From assembly GCA_043797265.1 (NCBI GenBank), contig JAZDPV010000018.1:1-64000 (forward strand): a DNA stretch of 64,000 nucleotides, written 5' to 3'. The notes beneath the pieces were generated by a model. That model was given only the letters and a program-made list of their open reading frames with translations, was not told the DNA's origin and did no database searches. This DNA is from an archaeon (lineage in GTDB: Archaea; Nanobdellota; Nanobdellia; Pacearchaeales; GW2011-AR1). Positions 12,481 to 38,555 of the stretch are shown piece after piece (positions within the stretch are counted from its first letter, which is position 1; each line of letters opens with the position of its first letter). The translations under genes were made by a program, and so were the position numbers.

Positions 12481-12870
12481 ATGGTAGCGAGGGTTATTGA
12501 TGCGGCGGAGATGCGTGTGGGGACTTTTGTGATGATTGAAGGTTCTACTTATCAGGTTAGAAAAGTTGATCATTCTAAGACGGGAAAGCATGGGCACACG
12601 AAGGTCAGGTTTGAGGCGGTGCATATTGTTACTGGGAAAAAGAAAGTTGCCGTGGTGCCTGGACCGGACAAGTTTGAGGTGCCGATGATTGAGAAAAAAC
12701 AGGCGCAGGTTCTTTCGGTTGTTGGGGATAATGTTAGTATTATGGATAGCGAGAGTTATGAAAATTTTGAGTTGGTCGTGCCGGAGGATTTGAAGGGAGA
12801 GATTAAGGATGGAGTTACCGTCGAGTATTGGGATGTTGAAGGGGAGAAAATTCTAAAGCGAGTGCTTTAG
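12481..12870 (+). CDS. eif5a: translation factor aIF5A
   Basis: SKTGKHGH hypusine loop. Confidence 0.97.
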   Translation: MVARVIDAAEMRVGTFVMIEGSTYQVRKVDHSKTGKHGHTKVRFEAVHIVTGKKKVAVVPGPDKFEVPMIEKKQAQVLSVVGDNVSIMDSESYENFELVVPEDLKGEIKDGVTVEYWDVEGEKILKRVL

Positions 12871-12967
12871 AATTTTGGTGGCTCGTTAGCTTTGCTAACA
12901 GGGGGCTCGACTTCGTCGGGAGGCTCAGCTTCGCTGGGTGGCTCATCGACTTTGTCGATGGAGACTT
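12847..12967. repeat. linker-plus-hairpin micro-array (linker GGNGGCTC)
   Basis: 13-bp fold-back over the stop codon, then linkers at 12877, 12901, 12919 and 12937, each followed by a different hairpin with TTC/TTT loop. Confidence 0.85.
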
Positions 12968-13057
12968 GGTGATTTTTGTTATGAGAGATTATATAAATTA
13001 AAAAGGATTTTAATTTGTTATCGGTAAATTTAAAAGGTGGGATTTTTATTGTTGGTT

Positions 13058-13222
13058 ATGGCGACGAAACTTCTTGCGGCGCAGAATCGGTTGTATAAGA
13101 ATGCGTTTGTCTGCAAGAGATGCAAGCATAAAATGAGATTGGAGCCGTTGAAAATTTTGACAGGGAAGGCGCGATGCCGGAAGTGTGGCGGGAAAGATTT
13201 TAGAACGGTGAGGAAGAAGTAG
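13058..13222 (+). CDS. rpl40e: 50S ribosomal protein eL40
   Basis: VCKRC...CRKCG...R.VRKK zinc finger. Confidence 0.85.
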   Translation: MATKLLAAQNRLYKNAFVCKRCKHKMRLEPLKILTGKARCRKCGGKDFRTVRKK

Positions 13223-13332
13223 GGTACCTACTTCATGTTTTTATTTTAAAAATTCTGAAAAATAAAATAAGAAGTAGGGTATCTACTTCATGTTTTTATT
13301 TTAAAAATTCTGAAAAATAAAATAAGAAGTAG
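13214..13332. repeat. 55-bp tandem duplication including the rpl40e stop codon, with internal palindromes
   Basis: aagaagtag at 13214, 13269 and 13324; the units differ by one base. Confidence 0.9.
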
Positions 13333-13356
13333 TTTTATAAAAGGATTTTATCTTTA

Positions 13357-14742: not shown

Positions 14743-14776
14743 GTAAAATTATAAGGGATTAATTCGTTTTTGATTT

Positions 14777-16079: not shown

Positions 16080-16163
16080 TTTAAAAAAATGATTGTGGAT
16101 TATTTAAGGATTTATGTGATGGATGATAAGTTTTATAAAGTGAGTTTTTGATTGGGTTGTACT

Positions 16164-16200
16164 ACGGGAGTAGGAGACTTCGGTCGCAAATTACTTCTGT
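16164..16200 (+). promoter_or_regulatory. uL1-binding autoregulatory RNA site in the rpl1 leader
   Basis: Stem acgggagta/tacttctgt enclosing GGAG-AC-UUCG-GU-CGCAAA, resembling the L1 target motif; TATA-like tttataaa at ~16132. Confidence 0.8.
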
Positions 16201-16206
16201 TATATT

Positions 16207-17639: not shown

Positions 17640-17690
17640 AAGTCAAATGAAAACATTTGTCATGTTTTTATTTTGACCCCAAAATAAAAA

Positions 17691-17975: not shown

Positions 17976-18058
17976 GTTAGAACGCTACGCGGTAGAACGA
18001 AAACTTCGTTTTCGGTAGAACGGCTATTGCCGGTAGAACGCGCTTCGCGTGGTAGAAT
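17976..18058. repeat. linker-plus-hairpin micro-array (linker GGTAGAA)
   Basis: gttagaa at 17976, then ggtagaa at 17991, 18014, 18032 and 18051, separated by four different hairpins. Confidence 0.85.
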
Positions 18059-18224
18059 AACTTTGAATGGTGAGGCTAAGTTAGCGTCGCTGTTTTGACT
18101 TGAAGCCAAATTAGATGGGCTTTGGGTTTGCTTTGAACGAGGAAGTCTTGTTAGATTTGTTAGGGTGGTTTTGGATGTTCTGGGGAATATAAGTTTTTAT
18201 AAATATCGTATTCTGTGAAGAAGA

Positions 18225-18647: not shown

Positions 18648-18654
18648 TTATGGA

Positions 18655-24289: not shown

Positions 24290-25234
24290 ATGACAGACAA
24301 TAATGGAATACGAAGTGGAAGTTTGCAGTTTTACCCGAGGGTGCGGGCGAAAAAAGTTTTGCCGAATGTGAATTGGAAGCCGGTAAGGAGAGACGGTGTC
24401 GGGTTCATGGGATTTATTGGCTACAAGGTTGGGATGGTTTCTGTTTGGGCGAAAGATAACACTGCTGATTCGTTGACGAAGGGGAAGAAGATTGTTATTC
24501 CGGCGACGATTGTCGAGTGCCCGGTGATGAGAATTTATTCTGTCCGATTTTACAGGAATGGGAAAGTTTTGAAAGATGTCGTTGTCGCGAATGGGAAGGA
24601 GTTAAAGAGGAAGGTAAAGGTAGGGAAGAAAGTTGGCGAGATTAAAGACGATGTTGAGTTTGATGATGTGAGGGTGATTTTGTCGTCGGGAGTTGGGATG
24701 ACCGGGATTGGGAAGAAGAAGGTTGACTTGATTGAGGTCGGGATTTCTGGGAGCAAGGATGAGAAGTTGGCTTTTGTAAAAGAGAGAATTGGGAAAGATA
24801 TTTTAATTGGGGATGTGTTTTCTGTGGGGTTGGTCGACGTGAGGGGTGTGACAAAGGGGTATGGGACGATGGGTCCGATGAAACGGTTTGGGATTTCTTT
24901 GAAGGCGCACAAGTCCGAGAAGGGACGGAGGCGGCCAGGTTCTTTGGCACCGTGGCATCCGGCGAGAGTTACTTTCAGAACGCCGATGATGGGGCAGACG
25001 GGTTATCATAGCAGAATTAATTATAATAATTTAATTTTGAAAGTTGGGAAGATTGGCGAGAAAGATATTAATTTGAAGGGTGGGTTTGAACATTATGGCG
25101 TCGTGAAAAATGATTATTTGATTTTGAGAGGTTCGATTCCGGGGCCGAAGAAGCGGGGGCTTGTGATTAGTCAGGCGATTAGACCGACGAAAATTGTGGC
25201 GAAAAAAAAGTTTGAGGTGATGGAGTTGAGATGA
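24290..25234 (+). CDS. rpl3: 50S ribosomal protein uL3
   Basis: RSGSLQFYPRVRA, GYKVGM, VTKGYG, GQTGYH. Confidence 0.98.
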   Translation: MTDNNGIRSGSLQFYPRVRAKKVLPNVNWKPVRRDGVGFMGFIGYKVGMVSVWAKDNTADSLTKGKKIVIPATIVECPVMRIYSVRFYRNGKVLKDVVVANGKELKRKVKVGKKVGEIKDDVEFDDVRVILSSGVGMTGIGKKKVDLIEVGISGSKDEKLAFVKERIGKDILIGDVFSVGLVDVRGVTKGYGTMGPMKRFGISLKAHKSEKGRRRPGSLAPWHPARVTFRTPMMGQTGYHSRINYNNLILKVGKIGEKDINLKGGFEHYGVVKNDYLILRGSIPGPKKRGLVISQAIRPTKIVAKKKFEVMELR

Positions 25235-26055: not shown

Positions 26056-26306
26056 AGACTATTATATTGGAGAAGGTGAAGTCGACGGAAAAAATTGTGC
26101 GACAGATTGAGGCAGAGAACGTTTTGGTTTTTGTCGTCGATAGAGCGGTGGACAAGTTGGAGATTAAAAACGAGGTTGAGAAATTGTTTGGCGTGAAAGT
26201 GGTTAAGGTTCGGACGCACACTTTAAAGAACAAGAAGATTGCTTATGTTAAATTGAAGTCGGATTATCCCGCGGTGGATGTTGCGACGAAGTTGGGGATG
26301 ATGTGA
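26052..26306 (+). CDS. rpl23: 50S ribosomal protein uL23
   Basis: TEK....E.EN.LVF.V...K.AYVKL. Confidence 0.95.
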   Translation: MKTIILEKVKSTEKIVRQIEAENVLVFVVDRAVDKLEIKNEVEKLFGVKVVKVRTHTLKNKKIAYVKLKSDYPAVDVATKLGMM

Positions 26307-26421
26307 TGAAATCGGATATTTCATCTGGTGATATTTTTGTTTCGCAAAAATGGAGATATGACGCTTTGCGTCGAGGAGATAATCGCTTCGCGATTGGTGA
26401 TACGACTTCATCGTGGATGAA
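26305..26421. repeat. linker-plus-hairpin micro-array (linker WGGWGATA)
   Basis: Hairpin over the stop codon, then linkers at 26326, 26351, 26374 and 26395, each followed by a hairpin. Confidence 0.85.
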
Positions 26422-26444
26422 GATTGATGGAGGTTTGAATTGAG

Positions 26445-27143
26445 ATGGGCAAAAGGATAATTCAGCAGCGACGGGGAAAGGGCGGGCATGTTTACAAGAC
26501 GAGAGAGGAGGCGGGGAAATTTAGGCCGGGATATTTGTCGAACATGGACGGGGAATTTGAGTGCGTGAAATTGTCGTCGTCGGTTGGGCATTCGGTTCCG
26601 ATTGCGAAGTTTATTTCGAAAGAGGGGAAGGCGTTTGAGAATTTTGCTGTGAATTTGTTGTATGTCGGGCAGAAGATTGTTTTCGGGGGGAAGAACGCCG
26701 GGGATGTTGCGCGACTTGGTGATTTGAAAAGTGGTACTGAGATTTTTAATATTGAACACAACCCGAAGGACGGCGGGAAGTTTGTCAGGACTGGCGGGAA
26801 TTTTGCGACGATTATGGTTAGAGAGGGAGATGTGGTGAAGGTTATGTTGCCGTCGAAGAATGTCAAGAAATTTAATGTTGATTGCCGGGCGACTGTCGGG
26901 CGGGCGGCTGGGGACGGGCGGTTGGATAAACCGATTTTGAAAGCGGGGAAGCAGTTTTATATAATGAAGATGAAATCAAAGTTGTGGCCAAGGACTTCTC
27001 CTGTTAAGATGAACGCGATTGACCATCCGTTCGGGTCTGGACGAGGGAAAAGAATTAAGAGCAAGATTGCGAAGAGGAATGCGCCGCCAGGAAAGAAAGT
27101 TGGGATGATTAGACCGAGAAGGACGGGGAGGAAGAAGAGATGA
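26445..27143 (+). CDS. rpl2: 50S ribosomal protein uL2
   Basis: MGKRIIQQRRGKG, MNAIDHPFG. Confidence 0.98.
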   Translation: MGKRIIQQRRGKGGHVYKTREEAGKFRPGYLSNMDGEFECVKLSSSVGHSVPIAKFISKEGKAFENFAVNLLYVGQKIVFGGKNAGDVARLGDLKSGTEIFNIEHNPKDGGKFVRTGGNFATIMVREGDVVKVMLPSKNVKKFNVDCRATVGRAAGDGRLDKPILKAGKQFYIMKMKSKLWPRTSPVKMNAIDHPFGSGRGKRIKSKIAKRNAPPGKKVGMIRPRRTGRKKR

Positions 27144-27213
27144 AATCTTTGATTTCATCAGTTCGCTTCGCTGGAAGTTGGAAGTTCGCTTCGCTGGAAG
27201 TGGGGCTTCGCCC
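27139..27213. repeat. stop-codon hairpin, duplicated GCTTCGC unit and GGGC-TTC-GCCC hairpin
   Basis: gatgaaatc-ttt-gatttcatc; agttcgcttcgctggaagt at 27160 and 27183. Confidence 0.8.
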
Positions 27214-27251
27214 GACCTGGATTATATTTGGCTTGGAGGGATTTAGCTAAG

Positions 27252-27644
27252 ATGGCGGAATTAATTAAGAGGAGCAAGGATAGGTTTTATCGAGGGAAGA
27301 AAGTCGCGGATTTGAAGGATGTTGATATTCGGGAATTTGCGAAATTGACGAAGGCGAGAGCGAGACGGGCGTTGTTGAGAAATTATGATATTGTCGAGGC
27401 GCTTGTGAAAAGATGGGAGAGATATAATGTGAAGAAGAAACCGATAAGGACGCATAATCGGGAAATTGTAATTGTGCCGAAGATGATTGGATGGACTATT
27501 GGAGTTTATAATGGGAAGGAATTTTTGAAAGTTGTTATTAGTGAGGAGATGTTGGGGCATCGGCTGGGAGAGTTTGCGATGACGAGGAAGGTTGCTAAAC
27601 ATACAAGCATTGGAGCGAAGAAGGCGCCGAAGGAAAATGGATAA
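27252..27644 (+). CDS. rps19: 30S ribosomal protein uS19
   Basis: IRTHNR...VYNGKEF...MLGHRLGEF. Confidence 0.97.
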   Translation: MAELIKRSKDRFYRGKKVADLKDVDIREFAKLTKARARRALLRNYDIVEALVKRWERYNVKKKPIRTHNREIVIVPKMIGWTIGVYNGKEFLKVVISEEMLGHRLGEFAMTRKVAKHTSIGAKKAPKENG

Positions 27645-28149
27645 AGAAAAAACTGGCGAGATTGAAAAAGAAGTTGTTTCCGAAGAGAAGAAAGAAGAGA
27701 AGAAAGATGTGAAGAAAGAAGTCGTGAGGGGGAAAGTTGTGAAGAAAAATATGGCATTCGCGAGAGGGGCTGGGTTGAATGTTTCGCCGAAGCAATGTAT
27801 TTGCATTTGCAAAGTTATTCGGGGGAAGAATCCGGATGTTGCTGTTGCGCGGCTGCAGGATGTTATCGACGGGAAAGGGGTTATCCCGATGGCTGGGCTG
27901 GAAGTCGGGCATAGAAAAGGCAAGGGGCTGGCGGGCGGGAGATTTCCGAAAAATGCGTGCAATGCTGTTATAAATATTGTGAAGCAGGTTGCGGCGAATG
28001 CTGTCGTTGCCGGAATTGAGAATCCGGTGATTGCTGTTGCCAAGGCTGATAGGGCATCGGCTCCGTTCAGGCGTGGAGGGCGAAGAGCGAAGAGATGTAA
28101 TCTTTATTTAGAAGTGAGAGATAAAACTAAATTGGCGGGGAAGAAATAG
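27637..28149 (+). CDS. rpl22: 50S ribosomal protein uL22
   Basis: VSPKQ..IC..IRGK, GRFPKNA. Confidence 0.95.
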   Translation: MDKEKTGEIEKEVVSEEKKEEKKDVKKEVVRGKVVKKNMAFARGAGLNVSPKQCICICKVIRGKNPDVAVARLQDVIDGKGVIPMAGLEVGHRKGKGLAGGRFPKNACNAVINIVKQVAANAVVAGIENPVIAVAKADRASAPFRRGGRRAKRCNLYLEVRDKTKLAGKK

Positions 28150-28847
28150 TGGAAGAAAAAGCGTTTGTTGGAGTGCGAAGGGATGAGTATAATATTCGGG
28201 AATTTGTAAAGCGGATGTTTGGGATGGGGAAAGTTTCGCGAGTGAGGATTGAGTATACTCCGGTTGGCGAAAAGGTTGTCGTGGCGACGCATAGACCTGG
28301 TTGGATTATCGGGAAGGGCGGGGAAAAAATTAATGAGTTGACCGAAATTTTGAAGAAGCGGTTTAAGATGGAGAACCCGCATGTTGATATCGAGGAGATT
28401 ATGAAGCCCGAGTTTGATGCTCAACTGGTTGCCGACGACATTGCTTTGACGCTCGAGAGATTTGGGGCGCAAAAATATAAGGCGTCGAGTTATCGGGCTT
28501 TGGATAGAATTAAGAAAGCGGGGGCTTGGGGGGCTGAGTTGAGATTGTCAGGGAAACTGCCGAGCGACAGGGCGCGGAGTTGGAGATTCGCGTTTGGTTA
28601 TTTGAAGAAAACTGGCGACGCTGCGAGTGTTGTTGATAGGGCTGAATCTGTTGCTGTTACAAAGCAGGGCGTTGTCGGGATTAAGGTTGCGATTTTGGCT
28701 CCGGGGGTTAAGGTTTATGACCAGATTGTAATTGACGAGGATTTTATGAATCAGATTAAGAAAAACGCGACATTTGAGGAAGTTGAGGAGACGGTTAAGA
28801 AAAAGAAAAGAAGTGTGAAGAAAAAAATTAAGGAGGGTAGGAAATGA
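28149..28847 (+). CDS. rps3: 30S ribosomal protein uS3 (GTG start)
   Basis: RPGWIIGKGG KH domain; SGKLPSDRAR. Confidence 0.97.
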   Translation: MEEKAFVGVRRDEYNIREFVKRMFGMGKVSRVRIEYTPVGEKVVVATHRPGWIIGKGGEKINELTEILKKRFKMENPHVDIEEIMKPEFDAQLVADDIALTLERFGAQKYKASSYRALDRIKKAGAWGAELRLSGKLPSDRARSWRFAFGYLKKTGDAASVVDRAESVAVTKQGVVGIKVAILAPGVKVYDQIVIDEDFMNQIKKNATFEEVEETVKKKKRSVKKKIKEGRK

Positions 28848-29038
28848 TGGCGGAGAAGAAAATGACGGTTAAGGAAATAGATAAGAAGATTATGGACTTG
28901 AAGATTGAGTTGCTGCGGAATCCGACGAAAAAGGGAAAGATTAAAAGGGAAATTGCGCGGCTTCTTACCATGGGGAACCGAGAGAACAGAGAATTAAAAA
29001 TGAAGACTTTAACTAAACTGGAGGATGCGAAGAAGTAA
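28844..29038 (+). CDS. rpl29: 50S ribosomal protein uL29
   Basis: LKIELLR...IKREIARLLT; operon position. Confidence 0.85.
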   Translation: MMAEKKMTVKEIDKKIMDLKIELLRNPTKKGKIKREIARLLTMGNRENRELKMKTLTKLEDAKK

Positions 29039-29337
29039 TGGATATTTGTCCGAAGTGTGGACTGCCTTTGGCGGCGTGTGTCTGCGGCGAGATTGCCAAG
29101 ACGCAACAACAAATTGTTGTGAAGACCGAAAAAAGGCGTTTCGGAAAAGTTAATACGATTATAACCGGATTTGATAATGGCGTCGACGTTAAGGATCTCG
29201 CGAAGCGGCTCAAAATGAAGCGGGCTTGCGGTGGCACGACGAAAAACAATGTTATCGAATTACAGGGAAATCACAAAGGTCACATTAAACCGATTTTGGT
29301 TGAAATAGGATTTAGTGAAAATCAGATTGACGATTAG
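29038..29337 (+). CDS. sui1: translation initiation factor aIF1 (SUI1)
   Basis: CPKCGLP..CVC, ACGGT, IELQGNH. Confidence 0.95.
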   Translation: MDICPKCGLPLAACVCGEIAKTQQQIVVKTEKRRFGKVNTIITGFDNGVDVKDLAKRLKMKRACGGTTKNNVIELQGNHKGHIKPILVEIGFSENQIDD

Positions 29338-29366
29338 CGCGTTTGCGTGAGGTGATAGAGAATAGA

Positions 29367-29714
29367 ATGGCAGAGAAAAAGGTAAGGAAGAAAATAGAAA
29401 TAAAGGTCGAATGTAAAGATAGACTTTGTCCTCGGCATGGGGATAGGAAGTTGAAATTGAGGGGGCGGGTTTTTGAGGGGGTTGTGATTAGAAAATTTCC
29501 GAGGAGAGTCACGATTGAGTTTGAGAGGATGTTGAAGTTGCCGAAGTACGAGAGATATGAGAAAAGGAAAACCAAGATTCACGCGAGATTGCCGGATTGC
29601 ATGAAGGATGAAGTTGCCGTTGGTGATTTGATTTTGATTGCGGAGACGCGACCAATTTCGAAGATGATTCATTTTGTTGTTTCGAAAGTTGTTCGGAAGG
29701 GGGCGGGGGAATGA
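29367..29714 (+). CDS. rps17: 30S ribosomal protein uS17
   Basis: C.D..CP.HG, KYERYEKR, ETRPISK. Confidence 0.97.
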   Translation: MAEKKVRKKIEIKVECKDRLCPRHGDRKLKLRGRVFEGVVIRKFPRRVTIEFERMLKLPKYERYEKRKTKIHARLPDCMKDEVAVGDLILIAETRPISKMIHFVVSKVVRKGAGE

Positions 29715-29774
29715 GATATGCTTTGATAGAAAAAGGGCTTCGCCAAATTTTATTTAATGTTTTGGAGGTAGAAA

Positions 29775-29981
29775 ATGAAGGCGATTAGTGCGCATCATGA
29801 GTATAAGGTGGGACTTAATTCTGGTAATTGGTATGGGGTTAGAGAGAGCGGGTTGCCGAGTGATAGAGAAGTTATTGGGGATTTAGAGGATGATAATAGT
29901 GTTTTTGCCTGTGGTCTTTTTGGCATTGGTACATCTAAAATAAAAAAACCTAAAGCGAGGAATGAAAATGAAGGCGATTAG
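29775..29981 (+). CDS. 68-aa orphan ORF created by an insertion at the rpl14 start
   Basis: SD GGAGGT at 29764; begins with the same MKAIS as uL14; bounded by a 20-bp direct repeat. Confidence 0.45.
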   Translation: MKAISAHHEYKVGLNSGNWYGVRESGLPSDREVIGDLEDDNSVFACGLFGIGTSKIKKPKARNENEGD

Positions 29982-30369
29982 TGGGCGGGTGACGAGGGGG
30001 TTGAATATTGGGAGTTTGGTTGATGCGTGTGATAATAGCGGGGCGCGGATTGTAAAAATTGTGGCGGTGAAACACGGGAAGACGTCGAAGGGACGGCAGG
30101 GTTATGCGAAGGTTGCGGATTGGGTGAAGGTTTCGGTGAGAAAGGGAGACCCGAAGATGAAGGGCGAGGTTTTTGATGCGGTGGTTGTTCGGCAGAGAAA
30201 ATCGTGGCGAAGAAACACGGGCGAGAGAGTTTGCTTTTCGGATAATGCGGTTGCGTTGTTCAAGGACGAGAAGGGAAATCCGAAGGGGACGCAGATTAAG
30301 GGTGCGGTCGCGAGGGAAGTTCAGGAAAGATGGAAAGAAGTCGCTAAAATTGCGGGGAGTGTTTATTGA
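29968..30369 (+). CDS. rpl14: 50S ribosomal protein uL14
   Basis: DNSGA, F.DNA, PKGTQIKGAVARE. Confidence 0.97.
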   Translation: MKAISGRVTRGLNIGSLVDACDNSGARIVKIVAVKHGKTSKGRQGYAKVADWVKVSVRKGDPKMKGEVFDAVVVRQRKSWRRNTGERVCFSDNAVALFKDEKGNPKGTQIKGAVAREVQERWKEVAKIAGSVY

Positions 30370-30486
30370 TGGGAAAATTAAAAATTTTCCCATGGGGATA
30401 CGAGAAACTTTGTTTCTCGAGGGGATATGGCTTCGCCATGGAGATAGACGCTTCGCGTCGGGTGATTGCGCTTCGCGCGGGTGAAT
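30369..30486. repeat. linker-plus-hairpin micro-array (linker NGGNGAT-like)
   Basis: 11-bp hairpin at the stop codon; linkers at 30393, 30420, 30439, 30460 and 30479 separated by four perfect C-TTY-G hairpins. Confidence 0.9.
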
Positions 30487-30495
30487 GGAGGAAAG

Positions 30496-31017
30496 ATGAA
30501 GTCGAAATTTAATAAATCGTGGAATGCGAGTGTGAAGCCAAGGAAACAGAGGAAGTTTTTGGTGAATGCGCCGAATCACATTAGGCGAAAGTTGATGGGA
30601 GCGACGCTGGATAAGAGATTGAGGGCGAAGCATGGGGTGAGGAGTATTGAAGTTCGGAAGGGCGATGAGGTCAAGGTTATGAGAGGGAAGTTTGCGAAGA
30701 AGCAAGGGAAAGTTGGGGGGGTTGATGTTAAGAATTGCCGGATTCAGATTGATGGATTACAAAGAGAGAAAAAGGGTGGAGAGAAAGTTATGACGTGGTT
30801 CCATCCGTCGAGTGTGAAGATTGTTGTTTTGGATGATAGTGATAAAAGACGGTTTAAACGGAAAGGTTTGGAATCTGGGAAAGTAAAATTAAGAGAGGGG
30901 AAAAATGGCTCACGGATGAACACGGATGAGCACGGATTAAAGAATAAGGAAAATAGAAAAGTTGATAGAATCGTTAAGGGGAAAATAGATAAAATGGAAA
31001 AGGAGATTAAGAAATAA
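30496..31017 (+). CDS. rpl24: 50S ribosomal protein uL24 with C-terminal extension
   Basis: PRKQRK...[18 protein letters not shown]. Confidence 0.96.
30901..30944 (+). repeat. AATGGCT + 3x10-mer element, copy 2, in frame in uL24
   Basis: cacggatgaa cacggatgag cacggattaa. Confidence 0.85.
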
Positions 31018-31676
31018 TGGCGCATATAAAGAAAACTGAAATGCCGACGCTGTGGCCGATTTCGAGAAGAGGGAAGAGAAAGAGATTTATCGCTGTTCCT
31101 GCTCACGCGACTTCGAAGGGAATTAGTTTGTTGTTTTTACTTAGAGATGTTTTGAGAGTTGTTGAGACGAGGAAAGAAGCGAGATATATGACGCTGAATG
31201 GGATGGTCAAAGTTAATAATGTTGTTCGGAAGGATGAGAATTTTCCGGTTCAGGTGTTCGATGTGTTAGGGTTAGAGAAGGGTGGATTGAATTATAGATT
31301 AGAGATTGTTAATGGAAAGTTTAGGTTGAATGAAATATCCGAGAAAGAGGCTGGGGAAAAAATTGTGAAGATTTCCGGGAAAAAGGTTTTGGGCAAGGAT
31401 AAGATTCAGATGAATTTGGATGATGGGCAGAATGTTTTGAGCGGGGAGAAATTTTCCGTCGGTGATTCGGTTTTGTTTAATACGAAAGAGAAAAAAGTTG
31501 TGAAAATTTTGCCGTTAAAGAAGGGGGCAAAAGTTGAAATTGTTTTGGGAAAGCACGCGGGGGACAAGGGCGAGTTGGTTGGGTTTGAAGATTTGGCCCG
31601 CGGGCGGAATTATGAAATTAAATTGGGGGACAAGATTGTGAGATTGCCTTACAAAACTATCTTGGTGATTGGATGA
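31017..31676 (+). CDS. rps4e: 30S ribosomal protein eS4
   Basis: HIK...P..WPI.R, LRDVL, GKHAG. Confidence 0.95.
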   Translation: MAHIKKTEMPTLWPISRRGKRKRFIAVPAHATSKGISLLFLLRDVLRVVETRKEARYMTLNGMVKVNNVVRKDENFPVQVFDVLGLEKGGLNYRLEIVNGKFRLNEISEKEAGEKIVKISGKKVLGKDKIQMNLDDGQNVLSGEKFSVGDSVLFNTKEKKVVKILPLKKGAKVEIVLGKHAGDKGELVGFEDLARGRNYEIKLGDKIVRLPYKTILVIG

Positions 31677-31692
31677 TGGGGGTAGACGATAG

Positions 31693-32235
31693 ATGGTAGA
31701 TGGTAATAATGTGATGAGAGAAATAAAACTGGAGAAGGTTATTTTGAATATCGGGGGCGTCGAGGATAAATTGAATAGAGGGGCGATTTTGCTGGAGAAA
31801 ATTTCGGGGAAGAAAGTGGTGAAGGTCAAGGCGACAAAGAGGATTCCGAGCTGGAATGTTCGGCCGGGACTTGAGGTTGGTGTCAAGGTTACGTTGAGGG
31901 GCGACGACGCGCTGGAGATGGTGAAGAAGTTGTTGCCGGCGATTGATAATATTTTGAAGGAGAAGCAGATTCAGGATAATTGTTTTTCGTTCGGGATTCA
32001 TGAGTATATCGAGATTCCGGGAGCTGAGTATATTCGGGAAGTTGGGATTATGGGGTTCGAGGTGACGGTTGTTTTTAGCCGGGCGGGAAAGAGTGTCGAG
32101 CAGAAAAAAATTAAGCGAGGCAAGATGCGAAGGTCGGTTGTGACGAGGAAGGAAATTGAGGATTATGTTGTAGATAAATTTGGGACGGAAATTTTGCGGA
32201 AGGAAAAGAAGTTGGAGGGGGAAGATGAGGAATAG
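31693..32235 (+). CDS. rpl5: 50S ribosomal protein uL5
   Basis: MREIKLEKVILNIG, VKVTLRG, FSFGI.EYI. Confidence 0.96.
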   Translation: MVDGNNVMREIKLEKVILNIGGVEDKLNRGAILLEKISGKKVVKVKATKRIPSWNVRPGLEVGVKVTLRGDDALEMVKKLLPAIDNILKEKQIQDNCFSFGIHEYIEIPGAEYIREVGIMGFEVTVVFSRAGKSVEQKKIKRGKMRRSVVTRKEIEDYVVDKFGTEILRKEKKLEGEDEE

Positions 32236-32239
32236 AAAT

Positions 32240-32278
32240 AATGGCTCACTAATGAACACGAATGAACACAGATTTAAA
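32240..32278 (+). repeat. AATGGCT + 3x10-mer element, copy 3, intergenic
   Basis: cactaatgaa cacgaatgaa cacagattta. Confidence 0.8.
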
Positions 32279-32303
32279 TTAAATAGGGAAGTTGGGGGAG
32301 GAT

Positions 32304-32534
32304 ATGACGTCGAGTGATTGGAGGAAGATAACGAAGCAGTTGAGGGGGAAGCCGGCGGTGTTGAAAAAGTTTTTGAAACATAATAAACCGAAGGCGAGGA
32401 AATTTGGCGTCGCTGTTAATAAATGCGAGGTTTGCGGGCGGACCGGGGCTCATATATCAAGTTATAATCTAAATTTGTGCCGACATTGTTTCAGGGAATT
32501 GGCGGTTGAATTGGGGTTTAAGAAATACTCATGA
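32304..32534 (+). CDS. rps14: 30S ribosomal protein uS14
   Basis: CEVCG...LCRHCFRE.A..LGFKKY. Confidence 0.96.
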   Translation: MTSSDWRKITKQLRGKPAVLKKFLKHNKPKARKFGVAVNKCEVCGRTGAHISSYNLNLCRHCFRELAVELGFKKYS

Positions 32535-32580
32535 GAAGGAAAATAGATAATAGAAAATTGGAAATAGGAGGAAATTTCAG

Positions 32581-32952
32581 ATGAGTCATGATGTTGTTGC
32601 GGACGGGTTGAATCAGATAATGAACGCGAAAGCGGTGGAGAAGGGTGAGGTTGTGATTAGACGGGGTTCGAAAGTTTTGGTTAAATTATTTAAGATGATG
32701 AAAGAGTTGGGGCATATTGATTATAAGATTGAGGACGGGGATATTATTGTCAGGATTTTGAAGTTAAATGAATGCCGGGCGGTGAAGCCGAGATATTTTG
32801 TCGGGGTTGATGGGATTGACAGGTACCTTAGGAGATTTTTGCCGTCGAGAAATTTCGGAACTTTAGTTATTTCTACGAACAAGGGATTGATAACGCACAA
32901 GGAAGCTTTGAAATTAAATATTGGGGGAAGCGTTGTTGCTTATTTTTACTGA
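32581..32952 (+). CDS. rps8: 30S ribosomal protein uS8
   Basis: LPSRNFG.LVIST..G...H.EA....GG. Confidence 0.96.
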   Translation: MSHDVVADGLNQIMNAKAVEKGEVVIRRGSKVLVKLFKMMKELGHIDYKIEDGDIIVRILKLNECRAVKPRYFVGVDGIDRYLRRFLPSRNFGTLVISTNKGLITHKEALKLNIGGSVVAYFY

Positions 32953-33533
32953 TGAATAAAGATTTGATGAGAGAGATTGAAATTCCGACGGGGGTTGAAG
33001 TTTGTGTTAACGGGAATGAGGTTGTTGTGAGAGGGAGCGGAAAGGAGTTGAGAAAAAGTTTTGATAAAGGGAAGGTTGTGATTGAAGTCAAGGACGGGAA
33101 AATTGTTTTGAGTGTTTCGGGGGCGAGTCGTCGGGAATCGAAGATGATTGGAACGATTTGGGCGCATTTGAAAAATATGATTAAGGGAGTTGGCGAAAAT
33201 TTTGTTTATGAGCTGGAGATTTGCAATATTCATTTTCCGATGAACGTTTCCGTTGTTGAAACAACGGAAAAGGGTACAGGCATCAGGAATCAGAATTCAG
33301 GCAAGGTTGTGATTAAAAGTTTTTTGGGGAGAGTGAAGGAGAGAGTTGCGCGGATTATGCCGGGGGTGAGTGTTGAAGTGAAAGGGAATAAGATTGTCGT
33401 TAGTTCAGGAGACATTGAGGCGGCAGGACAGACCGCGGCGAATTTAGAGAAAGCGACGAGGCTGGTTGGTCGGGATAGGAGAGTTTTTCAGGATGGAATT
33501 TACATAACTAAAAAACCTTATAGGAATATTTAA
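32952..33533 (+). CDS. rpl6: 50S ribosomal protein uL6 with an internal ~12-aa insertion
   Basis: HFPM, GQTAANLE, DRRVFQDGIYI. Confidence 0.96.
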   Translation: MNKDLMREIEIPTGVEVCVNGNEVVVRGSGKELRKSFDKGKVVIEVKDGKIVLSVSGASRRESKMIGTIWAHLKNMIKGVGENFVYELEICNIHFPMNVSVVETTEKGTGIRNQNSGKVVIKSFLGRVKERVARIMPGVSVEVKGNKIVVSSGDIEAAGQTAANLEKATRLVGRDRRVFQDGIYITKKPYRNI

Positions 33534-33534
33534 G

Positions 33535-33885
33535 ATGGAAAGAAAGAAGCCGAAATTTTTGAGGAAGGACTGGCACAAGGAAATTAAACTCGGGAGGACG
33601 GTGAAGAAATTGCGGAAGTGGCGGGCGGCGAAGGGGAGACATAACAAGATTAGATTGAGTAGGAGAGGACAGTCGCGGAGGCCGAAGATTGGATGGTCAT
33701 TAGGGGGCAGTAGGAAGGGAGTTGGTGGTAAGTATGTTTTGAATTTGAAGGATTTATCGTCGGTAAAAAAAGGTGAGGGAATTTTGATTGGGGCCGTTGG
33801 GGGGAAGAAGAGAAAGGAAATTGTTGCGAAGGCGAATGATATGGCTGTTAAGATTTTGAATAAATATAAGGTGGTGAAAAAATGA
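33535..33885 (+). CDS. rpl32e: 50S ribosomal protein eL32
   Basis: KKPKFLR.DW...KWR..KG..NKIR. Confidence 0.93.
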   Translation: MERKKPKFLRKDWHKEIKLGRTVKKLRKWRAAKGRHNKIRLSRRGQSRRPKIGWSLGGSRKGVGGKYVLNLKDLSSVKKGEGILIGAVGGKKRKEIVAKANDMAVKILNKYKVVKK

Positions 33886-34286
33886 ATTTGGCTAAGCGAA
33901 AAGAGTTGGCGGCGAAAGTTTTTGGGGTCGGGAAAGGCCGGATTATTTTTGTGAAAGATAATTTACCTGAAATTAAAGAGGCGATTACGCGGATGGATAT
34001 TATTGATTTGCATAAATCGGGAGCAATTAAAATTAGAGAGATTAGGGGACGGAAGAAAATTGTGAGAAGGCGACATAGAAGAAGAGTTGGAAAAGTTAAA
34101 GGGAAGGTTAGTGATAAGAAGGCGGAGTATGTGATAATCACGAGGAAGTTGCGGAAGTTTGTGAGAGGATTGGTGAGGGCGGGAAAAATTAAGAGAGAGA
34201 GAAGCGGGGAAATTCGGAAAGAGATTCGAGCGCGGAAGTTCAAGAGCAAAAGACATCTTAAAGAAATTTTGGAGGAAGGGGAATGA
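33882..34286 (+). CDS. rpl19e: 50S ribosomal protein eL19
   Basis: LAA.V.GVGK.RI, AITR.DI. Confidence 0.93.
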   Translation: MNLAKRKELAAKVFGVGKGRIIFVKDNLPEIKEAITRMDIIDLHKSGAIKIREIRGRKKIVRRRHRRRVGKVKGKVSDKKAEYVIITRKLRKFVRGLVRAGKIKRERSGEIRKEIRARKFKSKRHLKEILEEGE

Positions 34287-34359
34287 AAGTTTTGGCGGGG
34301 CTTTGCCCGAGGTTGTTTGGCGGCGGAAGGAATTTAAATGATGGTTTGAGGGGATTGTG

Positions 34360-34857
34360 ATGGCAGGATTAAGGACGATGAAGCGAAGGAGAAAGGAAGG
34401 GCGGACGGATTACAAGTTGAGACTGGGGCTGTTGAAGAGCGGGTTGCCGAGGATTGTGATTAGAAGGACGAACAAATATTTTATCGTGCAGGCGGTCGAG
34501 AGTGTTGAGGCACAGGACGGGGTTGTCGCGACTATTAGTTCGAAGGAGTTGTTGAAATATGATTGGGATGAGAAGAAGGGCGGGAGTTTGAAATCTATTC
34601 CGGCTGGATACCTCACGGGTTTTTTATTCGCCAAGAAACTGAAAAATAAAAACAAGTATATTGTTGATTTAGGGATGGCCCGGACCGAGAAAGGATGCAG
34701 GGTGTTTGCCGTCGTCAAGGGGTTGATTGATGGTGGCGTGAACATTGATGTTGATGAAAAAGTTTTTCCGTCTGGGGAAAGATTGGCGGGTGAGCATTTG
34801 GAAGACGGGATTAAAGAAATGATTGTAAAAGTTCGGGAGAAATTGAGGAATGGCTAA
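34360..34857 (+). CDS. rpl18: 50S ribosomal protein uL18
   Basis: RRRKEGRTDYK.RL.LLKS, AGYLTG. Confidence 0.96.
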   Translation: MAGLRTMKRRRKEGRTDYKLRLGLLKSGLPRIVIRRTNKYFIVQAVESVEAQDGVVATISSKELLKYDWDEKKGGSLKSIPAGYLTGFLFAKKLKNKNKYIVDLGMARTEKGCRVFAVVKGLIDGGVNIDVDEKVFPSGERLAGEHLEDGIKEMIVKVREKLRNG

Positions 34858-35686
34858 GAAAAAAGTTGCGGGGGATGCAGACGTCAAGGAGCAGTTGGAG
34901 GAGATGGTTGATGTGGTGGACGCCAAGGAGAAAGTGGAAGAGGAAAAGGTGTCGAAGGAATTTGACGAGAAGGCGAAGGTCGAGGAGAGGAGTGAATTTA
35001 AACGGGAGACGAAAGAGGAAAGATTTGCGAGAGAAGATTACGAGAAGTTGGAGAGATGGATACCGAGGACTGAGTTGGGGCGCAAGGTCAGGGCGGGGAA
35101 AATCAAGGATATTGACGAGATTTTGAAGGATGGGAAAAAAATTATGGAGTCGGAGATTGTTGATTTGCTGGTTCGTGGTTTGAAGGTGGACACTTTGTTT
35201 ATCGGGCAGGCGAAGGGAAAGTTTGGCGGAGGGAAGAGACGGGCGTTCAGGCAGACGCAGAAGAAAACGAAGGAAGGAAATGTTTTGACTTTTGGAGTGA
35301 TGGCTGTTGTTGGCGATGAGCATGGGCACGTTGGGCTTGGTTATGGGCGAGCGTCTGAGACATTGCCGGCGAAGGAAAAAGCGATTAGGAAAGCGAAATT
35401 GAGTATTGTGAAAATTCCGAGGGGGTGTGCGAGTTATAATTGTTCGTGTGATGGGGAACATAGTATCCCCTTGGCCGTCGAGGGGAAATGCTCTTCAGTG
35501 GTTATTAAGTTGATGCCAGCGCCTCAGGGAACGGGGTTGGTTGTTGGGGACGAGATGAAAAAGATTTTGAGGATGGTCGGGATAAAGGATGTCTATAGCC
35601 AGACCGAGGGAAAAATCAGGACGACGTTTAATGCGGCGAAAGCGTTGATGGTTGCGTTGAATAAATTGAATGAGGTGAGAATATGA
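34850..35686 (+). CDS. rps5: 30S ribosomal protein uS5
   Basis: WIPRTELGR.V, PAPQGTGLV. Confidence 0.97.
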   Translation: MAKKKVAGDADVKEQLEEMVDVVDAKEKVEEEKVSKEFDEKAKVEERSEFKRETKEERFAREDYEKLERWIPRTELGRKVRAGKIKDIDEILKDGKKIMESEIVDLLVRGLKVDTLFIGQAKGKFGGGKRRAFRQTQKKTKEGNVLTFGVMAVVGDEHGHVGLGYGRASETLPAKEKAIRKAKLSIVKIPRGCASYNCSCDGEHSIPLAVEGKCSSVVIKLMPAPQGTGLVVGDEMKKILRMVGIKDVYSQTEGKIRTTFNAAKALMVALNKLNEVRI

Positions 35687-35750
35687 AAATCGTAGATTTT
35701 CATGGTGATAATCGTTTTGCGATTGGATGTATGACTTTGTCATGGGTGGT
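35683..35750. repeat. stop-codon hairpin plus linker/hairpin units
   Basis: atgaaaatc-gta-gattttcat; tggtgata then a hairpin; atgac-ttt-gtcat. Confidence 0.75.
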
Positions 35751-35756
35751 TGTGAG

Positions 35757-36098
35757 ATGATATTGGTCGTGAGGATTGCGGGGCAGGCGAGGAAGAAGGC
35801 GAAGGATAGTGAGACCTTGAGGCGGTTGAGGTTGGGAAAGAAGTTTAGTTGTATTCTTGTCGACGAGAAAGATGATGTGAGGATAGGGATGGTGCGAGCG
35901 GTGGGATACATGGTTGCTTACGGGAAAGTTGAGGACGATTTTGTGAAAGAGTTGAAGAAGATGCGGAAAGACAAGGATGGGGTTTATTTTTTGCATCCGC
36001 CTCGAGGTGGGTTTAAGAAGAGTTCGAAAGTTGCGACGCCGAAGGGAATCCTTGGGAAAAATGAAGATATCACTAAATTAGTGGAGAGGATGTTATGA
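35757..36098 (+). CDS. rpl30: 50S ribosomal protein uL30
   Basis: VVRI.G, TL..LRL, LHPPRGG. Confidence 0.93.
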   Translation: MILVVRIAGQARKKAKDSETLRRLRLGKKFSCILVDEKDDVRIGMVRAVGYMVAYGKVEDDFVKELKKMRKDKDGVYFLHPPRGGFKKSSKVATPKGILGKNEDITKLVERML

Positions 36099-36195
36099 AA
36101 AAATCGGGGATTTTTTCGGGCGTTAGGTTGCTTCGCTTGTGGGTGTTGGGTCACTTCGCTTGTGGGAACTTGAGTAACATTGCGGGAGTATTAAG

Positions 36196-36645
36196 ATGAG
36201 AGTTCATAAGAGGAAGAAGTCATCGAGAATTCGTGGGGGAAAAACTTGCGGGTGGGGATTTAGGCAGAAGCACAAGGGGCATGGGAATAAAGGTGGGACT
36301 GGAATGGCTGGGAGCGGGAAGAGGGCGGACCATAAAAAACAATCTGCGTTGATGTCTGATGAGAAAGGGCAGTATTTTGGGAAGCAGGGGGCGACGTCGC
36401 GAGGAACAAAAAAGAAAAAATATGAAAAAATTAATTTGTGCGATATTCGGGCTAACTTTGATGGGAATAAGATTGATTTGAGTAAGCATAAGATTCTTGG
36501 GAAGGGCGAAGGGTTTAAGGCGGAAATTTTGGCGAAGAGCGCGAGTGTGAGCGCGATTGAAAAGATGGAGAAGGCGGGTGGTCGAATTCTTATTGTGAAT
36601 TCGAAGAAATCAGGTGTCAGAAATCAGGTGTCAGAGGAAAATTAA
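36196..36645 (+). CDS. rpl15: 50S ribosomal protein uL15
   Basis: RG..TCGWG, GG.GMAG, KILGKG, SAIEKME.AGG. Confidence 0.96.
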   Translation: MRVHKRKKSSRIRGGKTCGWGFRQKHKGHGNKGGTGMAGSGKRADHKKQSALMSDEKGQYFGKQGATSRGTKKKKYEKINLCDIRANFDGNKIDLSKHKILGKGEGFKAEILAKSASVSAIEKMEKAGGRILIVNSKKSGVRNQVSEEN

Positions 36646-36692
36646 AGTTAATTCTACAAAACTTTATAAAAGAATTTTATGTTCATTAAATC

Positions 36693-38069
36693 ATGGGCTT
36701 AAAATGGTTATTGCATAATTTGCCTGAGGTTCGGGCGCCGACGGAGAAGAAGGTTAGTTTTAATGTTAAATTGAAATGGACACTGGTTATTTTGGTTGGG
36801 TTTTTTGTTCTTTGCAATATTCCGTTGTTTGGCATTACAGAGAGTGCGTTGTCGCGGTTTGAGTATTTGGCGATTTTGTTGGGAACGGATTTTGGTTCGA
36901 TTATTTCGCTGGGTATTGGGCCTATCGTCATGGCTTCGATTATTTTGCAATTGTTGAATGGAGCGGGGATTTTGAATATTGATACGAATACCGACGAGGG
37001 CAAGAAGTTTTTTCAGGGGGTGCAGAAATTGCTGGTTTTTGCGTTTGTGATTTTTGAGTCGATGGTTTATGTTTTGATGAGAGGGATTGCGGCCGAACCG
37101 GGTTTTGCGGGGCTTGTTATTTTTCAATTGATTATCGGGGGGCTCTTGATTGTTTTTATGGACGAGGTTGTGCAGAAGTGGGGCTTTGGTTCGGGGGTTA
37201 GTTTGTTTATTGCGGCCGGGATTGGGTGGAGATTGTTTGCTCAGTTGTTCCAGTTTATCGGGCCGACTGGGGCGTTTGAGGCGACTGGTAAAGTTTTAGC
37301 GATTGTTGCCGCGATTATTTCTGGAGGGGCTGGGACGGGGACTGAGGTTTTGAGAAATTTATTTCCGATTATTGCTACTGCTGTTTTGTTTTTGGCGGTT
37401 GTGTTTGCGCAGAGTTTGAAGGTCGAGATTCCGCTGGCGTTTGACAGGATTCGCGGGCATTCGGTAAAGTGGCCGCTGCAATTTTTTTATGCGGGGGTTA
37501 TTCCGGTGATTTTGGTTTCGGCTTTGGTTGCTAATTTGCAGTTGTTTGCGTCGCTGTTGCAGAATTGGCTGGGGCACGCGACTTTCCTCGGTGGATTTAG
37601 TTCGGGCGGGCAGGCAATTTCGGGTTTGTCTTTTTGGGTTCACTCTACTCCTATTTTGGAGACAATTATCACCGGGAGTTTTAGATGGATTTATGCCGGG
37701 CAGGCGGTGGTTCATATTTTGTTTTATACTTTGTTTTCGATTGTGTTTTCTTTCTTTTGGGTCGGGACTTCAGGGATGGACGCGAGGAGTCAGGCGAACA
37801 AGATTGTTCATTCTGGGATGAGCATGCCGGGGTTTAGGAAGGACGAGAGAGTTTTGGAATCGATTTTGAAAAGGTATGTGACGCCGTTGACAGTGATGGG
37901 TGGTGCGGCGATTGGGCTTTTGGCATCGGTGGCGAACTTGCTTGGGGCGTTAGTTGGCGGGACGGCGATTCTTTTGGCGATTATGATTTTGTATCAGTTG
38001 TATCAGAACATCGCGCAGCAGCATGCGGTCGACATGAATCCGGCGCTCAAGGGTTTCTTTGGTGCTTGA
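36693..38069 (+). CDS. secY: preprotein translocase SecY
   Basis: LGIGPIV.ASIILQLL, GFGSGVSLFI, PGFR. Confidence 0.98.
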   Translation: MGLKWLLHNLPEVRAPTEKKVSFNVKLKWTLVILVGFFVLCNIPLFGITESALSRFEYLAILLGTDFGSIISLGIGPIVMASIILQLLNGAGILNIDTNTDEGKKFFQGVQKLLVFAFVIFESMVYVLMRGIAAEPGFAGLVIFQLIIGGLLIVFMDEVVQKWGFGSGVSLFIAAGIGWRLFAQLFQFIGPTGAFEATGKVLAIVAAIISGGAGTGTEVLRNLFPIIATAVLFLAVVFAQSLKVEIPLAFDRIRGHSVKWPLQFFYAGVIPVILVSALVANLQLFASLLQNWLGHATFLGGFSSGGQAISGLSFWVHSTPILETIITGSFRWIYAGQAVVHILFYTLFSIVFSFFWVGTSGMDARSQANKIVHSGMSMPGFRKDERVLESILKRYVTPLTVMGGAAIGLLASVANLLGALVGGTAILLAIMILYQLYQNIAQQHAVDMNPALKGFFGA

Positions 38070-38131
38070 GCGCAGTTGGTAGTGAGTAGTTTTTAGTTGG
38101 TAGTGTTTAAAGATAAGGCAACTTTGTTGCC
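38043..38131. repeat. fold-back over the secY stop, 5x7-mer and C-TTT-G hairpin
   Basis: gcgctcaag/cttgagcgc; agttggt agtgagt agttttt agttggt agtgttt; ggcaac-ttt-gttgcc. Confidence 0.8.
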
Positions 38132-38189
38132 GATTTTTTTGACTTGGCTACTTGGATGAATTTATATATTTTGATTTGTTTTATTTTTT

Positions 38190-38555
38190 ATGTGGGATTA
38201 TAAAAAACTTGATGTTTGGAAGAGGGCGATTGATTTGATTCCTGTTGTTTATGAGTTGACGAAGAAGTTCCCAAAGGAAGAGTTGTATGGACTTGTTTCT
38301 CAAATGAGGAGAGCGTTTGTTAGTGTTTCTGCGAATATAGCGGAAGGGTGTGGGAGAAGGACTGTTAAAGATTATGTTTCTTTTTTGTATAATGCTTTGG
38401 GGAGCGTGAAAGAAGTTGAGAGCGAGTTGTATGTTTGTGAAAAGTTGGGATATATTTCTGGGAATAAATTGGATGATTTATTGAAAGAATTAGATGAGAT
38501 TGGGAAAATGATTGTTGGTGTTATTAGTTATGTTTCTAGTAAAAATATTGAATAG
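38190..38555 (+). CDS. four helix bundle protein (23S rRNA IVP / Avd-like fold)
   Basis: L.VW..A...Y..T..FP.EE.YGL.SQMRRA..SV.ANIAEG.GR...GS..E. Confidence 0.93.
   Translation: MWDYKKLDVWKRAIDLIPVVYELTKKFPKEELYGLVSQMRRAFVSVSANIAEGCGRRTVKDYVSFLYNALGSVKEVESELYVCEKLGYISGNKLDDLLKELDEIGKMIVGVISYVSSKNIE

Follow-up and report, generated by a model that had tools for sequence, protein, structure and literature searches.

Hairpin arrays at gene ends of a Pacearchaeales genome as a candidate family of modular DNA inserts and cassette leaders

Why do perfect palindromes, followed by G-rich words or by further hairpins, lie across the stop codons of essential genes in a small archaeal genome? The question is raised by a stretch of 64,000 nucleotides of Pacearchaeales DNA (GW2011-AR1; contig JAZDPV010000018.1 of assembly GCA_043797265.1), referred to here as the window, i.e., positions 1-64000 of contig C18 of the source genome (G000). 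The source genome is a 625-kb assembly of 18 contigs, 83% complete, and its ribosomal protein set is archaeal. All contigs were oriented G-rich side up before analysis. With a little better than even confidence, the arrays are read here as a family of small modular DNA inserts, which behave like repetitive extragenic palindromic (REP) sequences, BOX elements, and rickettsial palindromic elements (RPE), and which are also leaders of gene cassettes.

Ten palindromes had been listed in a preliminary description of the window, and each proved to be perfect and correctly placed. They had been said to overlap gene ends, and seven of the ten contain a stop codon, i.e., that of aIF5A, L23, L2, L14, S5, L30, or SecY. 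Of the remaining three, one lies over the stop of a 61-aa gene (13037-13222) and two lie inside L6 and L15. The alternation of a linker with hairpins of differing stems was recovered at 12877-12960, 26326-26405, 30394-30480, and 35704-35745. These alternating linkers are G-rich and 5-8 nt long, GGCTC at the first site and GGRGATA at the other three. The preference for C-TTC-G and C-TTT-G loops was seen genome-wide, since among 719 perfect hairpins (stem of at least 5, loop of 3) CTTCG (49) and CTTTG (36) were the top two contexts and the next one had 19.

The hairpins were then counted against 20 dinucleotide shuffles, with the closing pair included in the stem length. On the G-rich strand, C-TTY-G hairpins numbered 139 vs 23.9 at a stem of at least 4, 85 vs 6.5±2.1 at a stem of at least 5, and 61 vs 1.2 at a stem of at least 6. 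The reverse orientation (CRAAG) gave 26 vs 5.0 at a stem of at least 5. Within -10 to +150 nt of a plus-strand stop, a zone of 12.7% of the genome, lay 49 of the 85 hairpins, and a stop codon stood under a perfect hairpin (stem of at least 6) in 34 of 493 plus-strand genes vs 63 of 2465 positions at five intragenic offsets, although the gene calls behind these position statistics, made by a third caller after two earlier ones were biased by GC skew, are crude. Two to five hairpins were held by 26 of 98 clusters. The arrays follow housekeeping genes, in agreement with the claim that they survive at gene ends of essential operons. Outside the window the preceding genes include those of S12, S7, ABCE1, MCM, PCNA, RpoK, acylphosphatase, a T2SS-F-like protein, and ROK, among others.

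A common architecture was recognized. The head is an A/T-rich hairpin over the upstream stop codon, often ATGAAA(A)TC-loop-GATTT(T)CAT. The body usually holds 3-5 copies of a family-specific G-rich word of 6-10 nt, which either follow one another directly (7-mers) or are spaced by short perfect hairpins having a GC core and a C-TTY-G loop; five linkers per array were counted by eye in nine arrays. A (C)TTGG(Y)G motif forms the tail, and behind it stands either a Shine-Dalgarno sequence with ATG or a TATA-like promoter stretch. The linker families comprise at least seven words, i.e., GGRGATA, GRAAAGTTCA, TGGAAGTTC, GGCTC, GATGGTT, GGTAGAA, and TGTGAGTT, and a further family is made of plain tandem 7-mers of the GGTTTCA type. 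Hairpins are reused across arrays in different orders, such as CAGTCGC-TTT-GCGACTG on contigs C5, C9, and C14, where arrays of linker family B are present, and AATCGC-TTC-GCGATT on C16 and C18. The array between L23 and L2 (26305) has a paralogous copy on C2 (47299) with 85.6% identity over 111 nt in blastn. Because the same hairpins recur between arrays and one whole array is copied on C2, the variable stems are, judging from the sequences, partly different positions of one modular element.

Invariance across relatives, as expected of fixed RNA leaders, was looked for, and the spacers turned out to be lineage-specific. By L14 identity, the closest relatives of the source genome are G048 (94%), G057 (93%), and G054 (90%). 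Among 16 same-genus loci that extend beyond L14, 15 have the L24 ATG no more than 6 nt behind the L14 stop, and so do G048 and G057 (gap of 0 nt) and G049. In the source genome 127 nt of array stand there, and this particular array was found in no other genome. Operon junctions in relatives mostly measure -4 to +5 nt where the arrays of the source genome span 70-138 nt. The L23/L2 and S5/L30 junctions hold arrays in the source genome and all three closest relatives, built from different units, and an L30/L15 array is common to the source genome and G057 only. At S5/L30, G057 carries three identical tandem units. From SecY to the next gene there are 0-178 nt in eight of nine relatives vs 520 nt in the source genome, and this 520-nt insert, in front of an EMC3/YidC-like gene, consists of an array leader and a PF05635 gene. 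An in-frame insert in L6 adds about 15 residues behind a conserved HFPMNV, in only the source genome and G054 among 13 aligned genomes, and the L15 tail holds a module resembling this hairpin-plus-7-mer insert. The comparisons show that arrays are gained, lost, and rebuilt between close relatives, that they grow via tandem unit duplication, and that they can land in frame within genes.

The protein most closely tied to the arrays is the product of the plus-strand gene at 38190-38555, which matches PF05635 (23S rRNA intervening sequence (IVS) protein, Avd-like) at E = 3.6e-38, with a weaker match to bAvd. Its nearest solved relative is PDB 2gsc (E = 3.6e-22), deposited with five chains. To our knowledge, this widespread small family, which comprises 23S rRNA IVS proteins and relatives of the Avd of diversity-generating retroelements (DGR), has no known role. 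The gene had been noted earlier as a four-helix-bundle gene physically linked to the signature, and the link was reinforced genome-wide: an array lies directly upstream, within about 150 nt, of all five PF05635 genes of the source genome (5/5), each array with a different word. These paralogs are 34-58% identical, one has an internal stop, and they stand behind SecY, RpoK, ROK, T2SS-F, and an AP-endonuclease-like gene, with repeats upstream only. Among 24 loci of relatives inspected by eye, a stop hairpin, tandem 7-mers, and a GC hairpin come before the PF05635 copy in most, and repeats on both sides occur at 4 of the 24. The leader type tracks the PF05635 protein clades. The window copy groups with a copy in G041, which has the same leader, and the upstream 30 nt in G041 do not encode a SecY C-terminus.

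In the genus, PF05635 was found in 20 of 49 genomes, with 0-16 copies, and in all seven array-bearing genomes (7/7). A genus-wide pattern census of triple C-TTY-G was noisy (25 matches in the source genome vs 9 in the control), its control counts equalled or exceeded the signal in several genomes, and GCTTCGC-type words performed no better; the co-occurrence therefore rests on the seven genomes in which arrays were actually seen, whose assemblies are 69-85% complete. The census excess of G046 was rejected as arrays, being caused by an unrelated repeat with hairpins of the TTAAC-TTCG-GTTAA type. No PF05635 remnants were found beside solo arrays by tblastn (E<=5). In G054 (L23/L2) and G037 (L14/L24), the ORFs behind the arrays are other cargo. 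The arrays serve as 5' leaders to small cassettes of accessory genes, PF05635 foremost, with unrelated cargo in relatives too; leaders of cargo other than the four-helix-bundle gene had not been noted in the preliminary description. A literature search, with supplements outside its scope, gave no account of repeats beside PF05635 genes. In one figure legend, the 23S rRNA intervening sequence protein is counted among CRISPR-array-associated proteins.

At what level, DNA or RNA, are the palindromes maintained? The best surviving alternative, which is considered rather unlikely, holds that they are selected RNA cis-elements evolved in place, i.e., 3'-end protection, processing or termination sites, or tuning of translational coupling, with compensatory stem variation. 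The composition of the genome allows a comparison. Absolute GC skew is 0.29-0.53 on every contig (18/18), and the G-rich strand has 28.5% G, 12.4% C, and 34% T; in operon regions of relatives the skew is 0.05-0.54. Because IF-2B (38972-39790), a genuine minus-strand gene, is C-rich in its sense strand, the extreme skew is suggested to be a property of the strand rather than of coding alone. On a strand so rich in G and T, stems under selection as RNA would be expected to contain many G·U pairs and few A·C pairs. Among 1177 stem pairs beside C-TTY-G loops there were 7 G·T, 11 A·C, and 12 other mismatches, counts which are all depressed by the Watson-Crick seed of the hairpin finder, so that the fair part is the symmetry of G·T and A·C. 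In the stems of 31 tRNAs of the same genome (ARAGORN), 53 of 679 pairs (7.8%) are G·U. The symmetry argues for true DNA palindromes of DNA-level origin and stands against RNA selection. Folding points the same way. The sense RNA barely beats its shuffles in five of eight arrays (z -0.5 to -2.0; the other three -2.6 to -4.1), whereas the C-rich antisense strand folds into clean separate hairpins (z -1.3 to -5.8).

Several features do favor RNA elements. The arrays are co-oriented with the upstream gene, begin at its stop codon, and follow housekeeping genes. One compensatory change was seen in the S5/L30 stop hairpin, which has ATC/GAT in the source genome vs ATT/AAT in G057. Two sites are terminator-like, with a hairpin followed by a T-run (38117-38140 and 13216-13252); among the array hairpins no others have this form, as the rest precede G-rich linkers. 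Bridging ORFs also indicate selection at the level of translation. However, the same junctions lack arrays in most congeners, arrays are made up differently in genomes sharing 90-94% L14 identity, and the same module stands in frame within L6 and L15.

The bridging ORFs, absent from the preliminary description, deserve a description of their own. At four junctions (L23/L2, L2/S19, S5/L30, and L30/L15), the upstream stop shares letters with an ATG (as ATGA or TGATG), and the reading frame begun there crosses the entire array. It closes at the following start codon or a single base ahead of it (ATGA, TGAgATG, TAAgATG). The short S14/S8 and L19e/L18 spacers are bridged as well. Among spacers of 40-200 nt, with L15/SecY (promoter) and L18/S5 (misplaced start) left out of the count, 6 of 8 are bridged in the source genome (0.96 expected from shuffles), 9 of 13 in the three closest genomes (1.26 expected), and 7 of 16 in other congeners (0.44 expected). 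The arrays at ends of transcription units (aIF5A, P1, SecY) have no mini-ORF. Peptide and frame are common to two copy pairs, i.e., C18 26306 with C2 47299, and L2/S19 of the source genome with L23/L2 of G054; other arrays use different frames. The predicted mini-ORFs would restore stop/start coupling where arrays split cistrons whose stop and start normally overlap as ATGA or TAATG. Until the upstream ribosome comes, the stop/start overlap is probably masked by the stop-codon hairpin, and downstream translation, that of cargo genes included, would ride on translation of the host gene. RNA roles of this kind, among them such masking or the protection of 3' ends, are plausible.

Small junction ORFs were also observed in the S10/spc operons of congeners (loci L028-L043 and L106-L110). 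They are genome-specific, 58-187 aa long, and coupled via ATGA or TAATG, and many have no hairpins. A Pfam search of 16 junction ORFs in relatives gave no matches (0/16). Locus L031 carries two paralogous mini-ORFs of about 28 aa at different junctions.

How might such palindromes be written? An active process had been proposed in the preliminary description, either of HUH type or by fold-back/template-switch synthesis. The DNA-level part of the proposal is supported by lineage-specific inserts, the in-frame L6 module, tandem copies, and Watson-Crick stems; the HUH-type route is not. Fold-back or template-switch copying is an established mechanism, and the hairpin arms are consistent with it. 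In the SecY stop hairpin (38043-38073; 9-bp arms, TGA in the right arm), the left arm is SecY coding sequence for a conserved Ala-Leu-Lys, and the right arm is its inverted copy. The stop hairpins at L23/L2 in G057 and at S5/L30 in G054 have 13-bp stems reaching into the last codons of the host gene, so that in relatives as many as 13 host coding nucleotides recur, inverted, in the right arm. Such inverted arms would fit fold-back or template-switch copying. Under the insert reading, DNA-level copying, i.e., fold-back/template-switch synthesis, slippage, and inter-locus copying, would make the palindromes and keep them perfect. Selection on RNA pairing would not be what keeps them, and a HUH transposase would not be the mover. 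Selection would merely filter, for reading frame inside genes and for termination-reinitiation coupling inside operons.

A simpler version of this process would need neither inter-locus copying nor a link to a protein. The arrays would then be by-products of replication error alone (stalling, slippage, and quasi-palindrome correction) in a repair-poor, strand-skewed genome. This explanation, judged unlikely, draws on the identical tandem units, the inverted copies of host sequence at stop codons, and the skew of every contig. It also draws on gene 3' ends that are duplicated in place: at loci L031 and L033 of relatives, the last SecY codons are tandemly duplicated along with a hairpin, which means that gene 3' ends in the genus duplicate locally even without arrays. 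Replication error alone does not account for the same hairpins and linkers in the same order at unlinked loci (C18 26305 and C2 47299; family B on C5, C9, and C14), for the adjacency to PF05635 in 5/5 genes, or for leader types that track PF05635 clades.

Movement by a Y1 HUH enzyme, i.e., a REP-associated tyrosine transposase (RAYT) or TnpA acting on units like REP or bacterial interspersed mosaic elements (BIME) or on units derived from IS200/IS605, has only a slight probability. In this explanation the linker would be the cleavage word and the hairpin the single-stranded DNA handle. A short word 5' of a hairpin and strict strand orientation do resemble known HUH substrates of REP/RAYT and IS608, and one Y1_Tnp match is present in the source genome. 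However, this sole match, an open frame of 112 aa aligned to profile positions 10-121 (C18:86959-87294), lies 23 kb outside the window, and no C-TTY-G arrays were found beside it in the surrounding 1.8 kb. The frame lies in an AT-rich, low-skew island (C18:86200-88000) with a Cys-rich 171-aa ORF on the opposite strand, and the island looks like foreign DNA. Of 49 genomes of the genus, 12 gave a Y1_Tnp match, and of the seven array-bearing ones (69-85% complete) only the source genome and G048 did. Co-occurrence with Y1 transposases thus failed to appear, at 2/7 with the match in the source genome being a remnant unlinked to arrays. Moreover, at least seven linker words and many stems leave no single conserved substrate. 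A HUH enzyme is therefore unlikely as the agent of the arrays.

An assembly or amplification artefact, e.g., fold-back chimeras, has nothing in its favor but the palindromic nature of the sequences and can practically be dismissed, as the same junctions hold arrays in four separately assembled genomes, reading frames are maintained across arrays, and an independent public contig, found among low-depth fragments in three DNA contig sets and possibly derived from the sample that gave the window, is identical over 30438-30706 and covers part of one array.

The reading as modular inserts has its own difficulties, and the following points weigh against it. No candidate copying enzyme was identified. 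Inspection of the sequences found no terminal inverted repeats such as a MITE would have, the head and tail being without complementarity, and blastn (E<=1e-3) found no donor copy for the L14/L24 array. The five operon inserts have ATG(A) or GATG at either end, letters that the mini-ORF coupling also demands; beyond these, no clear target duplication was found. A transposition step would thus be conjectural. Array clusters on the G-rich strand lie behind plus-strand genes in 26 cases and behind minus-strand genes in none (0), so transcription-linked and replication-linked causes are inseparable. No array was found behind the 13 minus-strand genes checked in the window, and no reversed cluster was seen genome-wide. 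With about one gene in six on the minus strand, this bias is by a rough estimate a mild departure. PF05635 beyond the genus was found in 2 of 56 sampled other-genus genomes of the order, neither with an upstream array. The crude gene calls and the seeding of the hairpin finder, described above, count on the same side.

What part might the PF05635 protein take? A tentative extension, which we regard as possible though doubtful, is that arrays and PF05635 proteins form one new kind of system. In it, about five hairpin-spaced 7-nt words would be bound by a pentameric Avd-like protein. The protein would bring cassettes of leader and cargo to stop/start junctions, by moving or copying them and perhaps with the help of an orphan DGR reverse transcriptase (RT), or would control a translation relay across the arrays. 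A DGR was recognized on contig C3 of the source genome (L022:201-2310), with a variable repeat (VR) at 833-919 in the target gene, a template repeat (TR) at 1182-1268, and the RT at 1291-2310; VR and TR are 87 nt long with 83% identity. Neither an Avd-like gene nor arrays were found beside this DGR, and the five Avd-like PF05635 genes are dispersed elsewhere. If the extension is true, the PF05635-array system would be the first function for the 23S rRNA IVS protein family.

The insert reading has wider meaning. It would show that one of the smallest cellular genomes tolerates invasive DNA within its most essential operons, where inserts would persist only if a mini-ORF passes ribosomes to the next gene or if the frame is kept in a protein loop. 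The arrays would give PF05635 a sequence partner, and hence a testable handle. They would also form a natural data set of perfect palindromes under extreme strand-biased mutation, useful for the study of fold-back and template-switch synthesis.

The individual sites in the window are all on the plus strand. Behind the aIF5A gene (at 12481), the array at 12847-12972 has a 13-bp stop hairpin (12847-12876, TAG in the right arm), four GGCTC-linker/hairpin units, and a terminal GGAGACTTGGTG. Behind the 61-aa gene, the array at 13216-13332 begins with a stop palindrome (13216-13234, TAG in the left arm) and continues as a 55-nt tandem duplication, 98% identical; a palindrome and a T-rich stretch are present in each copy of the duplicated unit (13214-13332), so that the site resembles a terminator present twice. 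After the genes of L1, L10, and P1 (16207-17975), an array with the linker GGTAGAA, absent from the preliminary description, follows ribosomal P1/L12 at 17976-18070.

The other sites belong to the archaeal S10/spc ribosomal operon, which runs from L3 to SecY (24290-38069). The L23/L2 array (26305-26443) has a palindrome over TGA (26305-26325), a linker of the GGRGATA family, here GGWGATA, and five hairpins, and its mini-ORF (26306-26443) has 45 codons, with a TGATG start and a TGAgATG end. The L2/S19 array (27139-27250) consists of a 9-bp stop hairpin over TGA (27139-27159) and a duplicated 22-nt unit with GCTTCGC cores (27160-27205), bridged by a mini-ORF of 36 codons (27140-27250; ATGA ... 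TAAgATG). In the L14/L24 array (30369-30496), an 11-bp stop hairpin over TGA (30369-30393) precedes four GGRGATA-linked hairpins, and the frame opening at TGATG overshoots the L24 ATG. The L6 insert (33247-33306) is a 10-bp hairpin (33247-33270) with four 7-mers. The L19e/L18 spacer (34283-34360) holds a 25-codon bridging mini-ORF and one GGGCTTTGCCC mini-hairpin between TTGGCGG motifs. At S5/L30 (35683-35760), a stop hairpin over TGA (35683-35703) and two linked hairpins are spanned by a 25-codon mini-ORF (ATGA ... ATGA). At L30/L15 (36095-36199), a stop hairpin over TGA (36097-36117) and two degenerate GCTTCGC units are spanned by a mini-ORF of 34 codons (ATGA ... ATGA). The L15 C-terminal tail module (36582-36633) is a hairpin (36582-36604) followed by two 14-mers, i.e., four 7-mers. 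The leader of the PF05635 cassette (38043-38189) comprises the SecY stop hairpin, AGTTGGTAGTG repeats, a GGCAAC-TTT-GTTGCC hairpin with a T-run, GACTTGGC, and an AT-rich promoter-like stretch. An Rfam gathering scan of the window gave two tRNAs and nothing else.

Other hairpin elements were observed in the source genome. A separate dispersed element of about 120-150 nt has at least 14 copies on C2, C5, C12, and C16 (e.g., C5:10090-10141 and C16:14257-14307). Its order is GGGAGGGGAAATT-like G-rich repeats, two C-TTC-G hairpins separated by ATATCTTT, and a CGCGCGG-type hairpin. It lies 20-40 nt upstream of TATA-like sites, and variants of the first hairpin differ by paired changes; the second hairpin was found in only 4 of 48 congeners. 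Another motif, GATTGTCTT-hairpin(GTTTTTC..GAAAAAC)-GCGG-hairpin, stands just upstream of gene starts and is conserved in several genomes of the genus. Its sites are C3:18059-18184, C9:724-773, and C12:265-308 in the source genome, and the S3/L29 junction in relatives (loci L040 and L109). Outside the window, C18:81335-81441 holds 33-nt tandem repeats, each with CCCC-TTCG-GGGG and ACCTGC-GAG-CAGGT hairpins.

Full-text literature searches turned up no earlier account of arrays of this type from DPANN or Pacearchaeota. The comparison is made with systems known from elsewhere. Quasi-palindrome template-switch mutagenesis would explain perfect arms without G·U and the inverted adjacent host sequence. 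However, it is a mutational process, not an element, and alone it leaves the shared unlinked units and the PF05635 link unexplained. For the 23S rRNA IVS of Coxiella and Leptospira, PMC4990558 describes an S23p/PF05635 ORF in a small element called selfish and bounded by helix-forming sequence. The likeness lies in the same protein family in a small element that is patchy among relatives, whereas the copies of the source genome stand behind protein genes, not within 23S rRNA, and have repeats upstream only.

The REP is defined by one conserved imperfect palindrome with a conserved 5' tetranucleotide. Like REP/BIME-RAYT systems, the arrays offer many short palindromes just after stops, gene-oriented and arrayed with linkers. 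They differ in stems that vary by unit, in having at least seven linker words, in the lack of an adjoining RAYT, and in the archaeal host. In the case of RPE, PMC10969869 describes palindromic inserts that are tolerated in frame in essential protein genes and translated along with them. The in-frame inserts of L6 and the L15 tail are alike, and mini-ORF peptides resemble each other between some array copies. RPE form conserved-sequence families of about 150 bp with a conserved peptide, whereas the present units are 20-27 nt long, vary in number, and mostly occupy stop/start junctions. Pneumococcal BOX elements are modular, in the form boxA-boxB(n)-boxC. The arrays share with BOX a fixed head, variable internal units, and a fixed tail, and both are intergenic and hairpin-forming. 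There is no sequence relation, and in the arrays the internal units are diverse hairpins that are tied to PF05635 cassettes and bridging ORFs.

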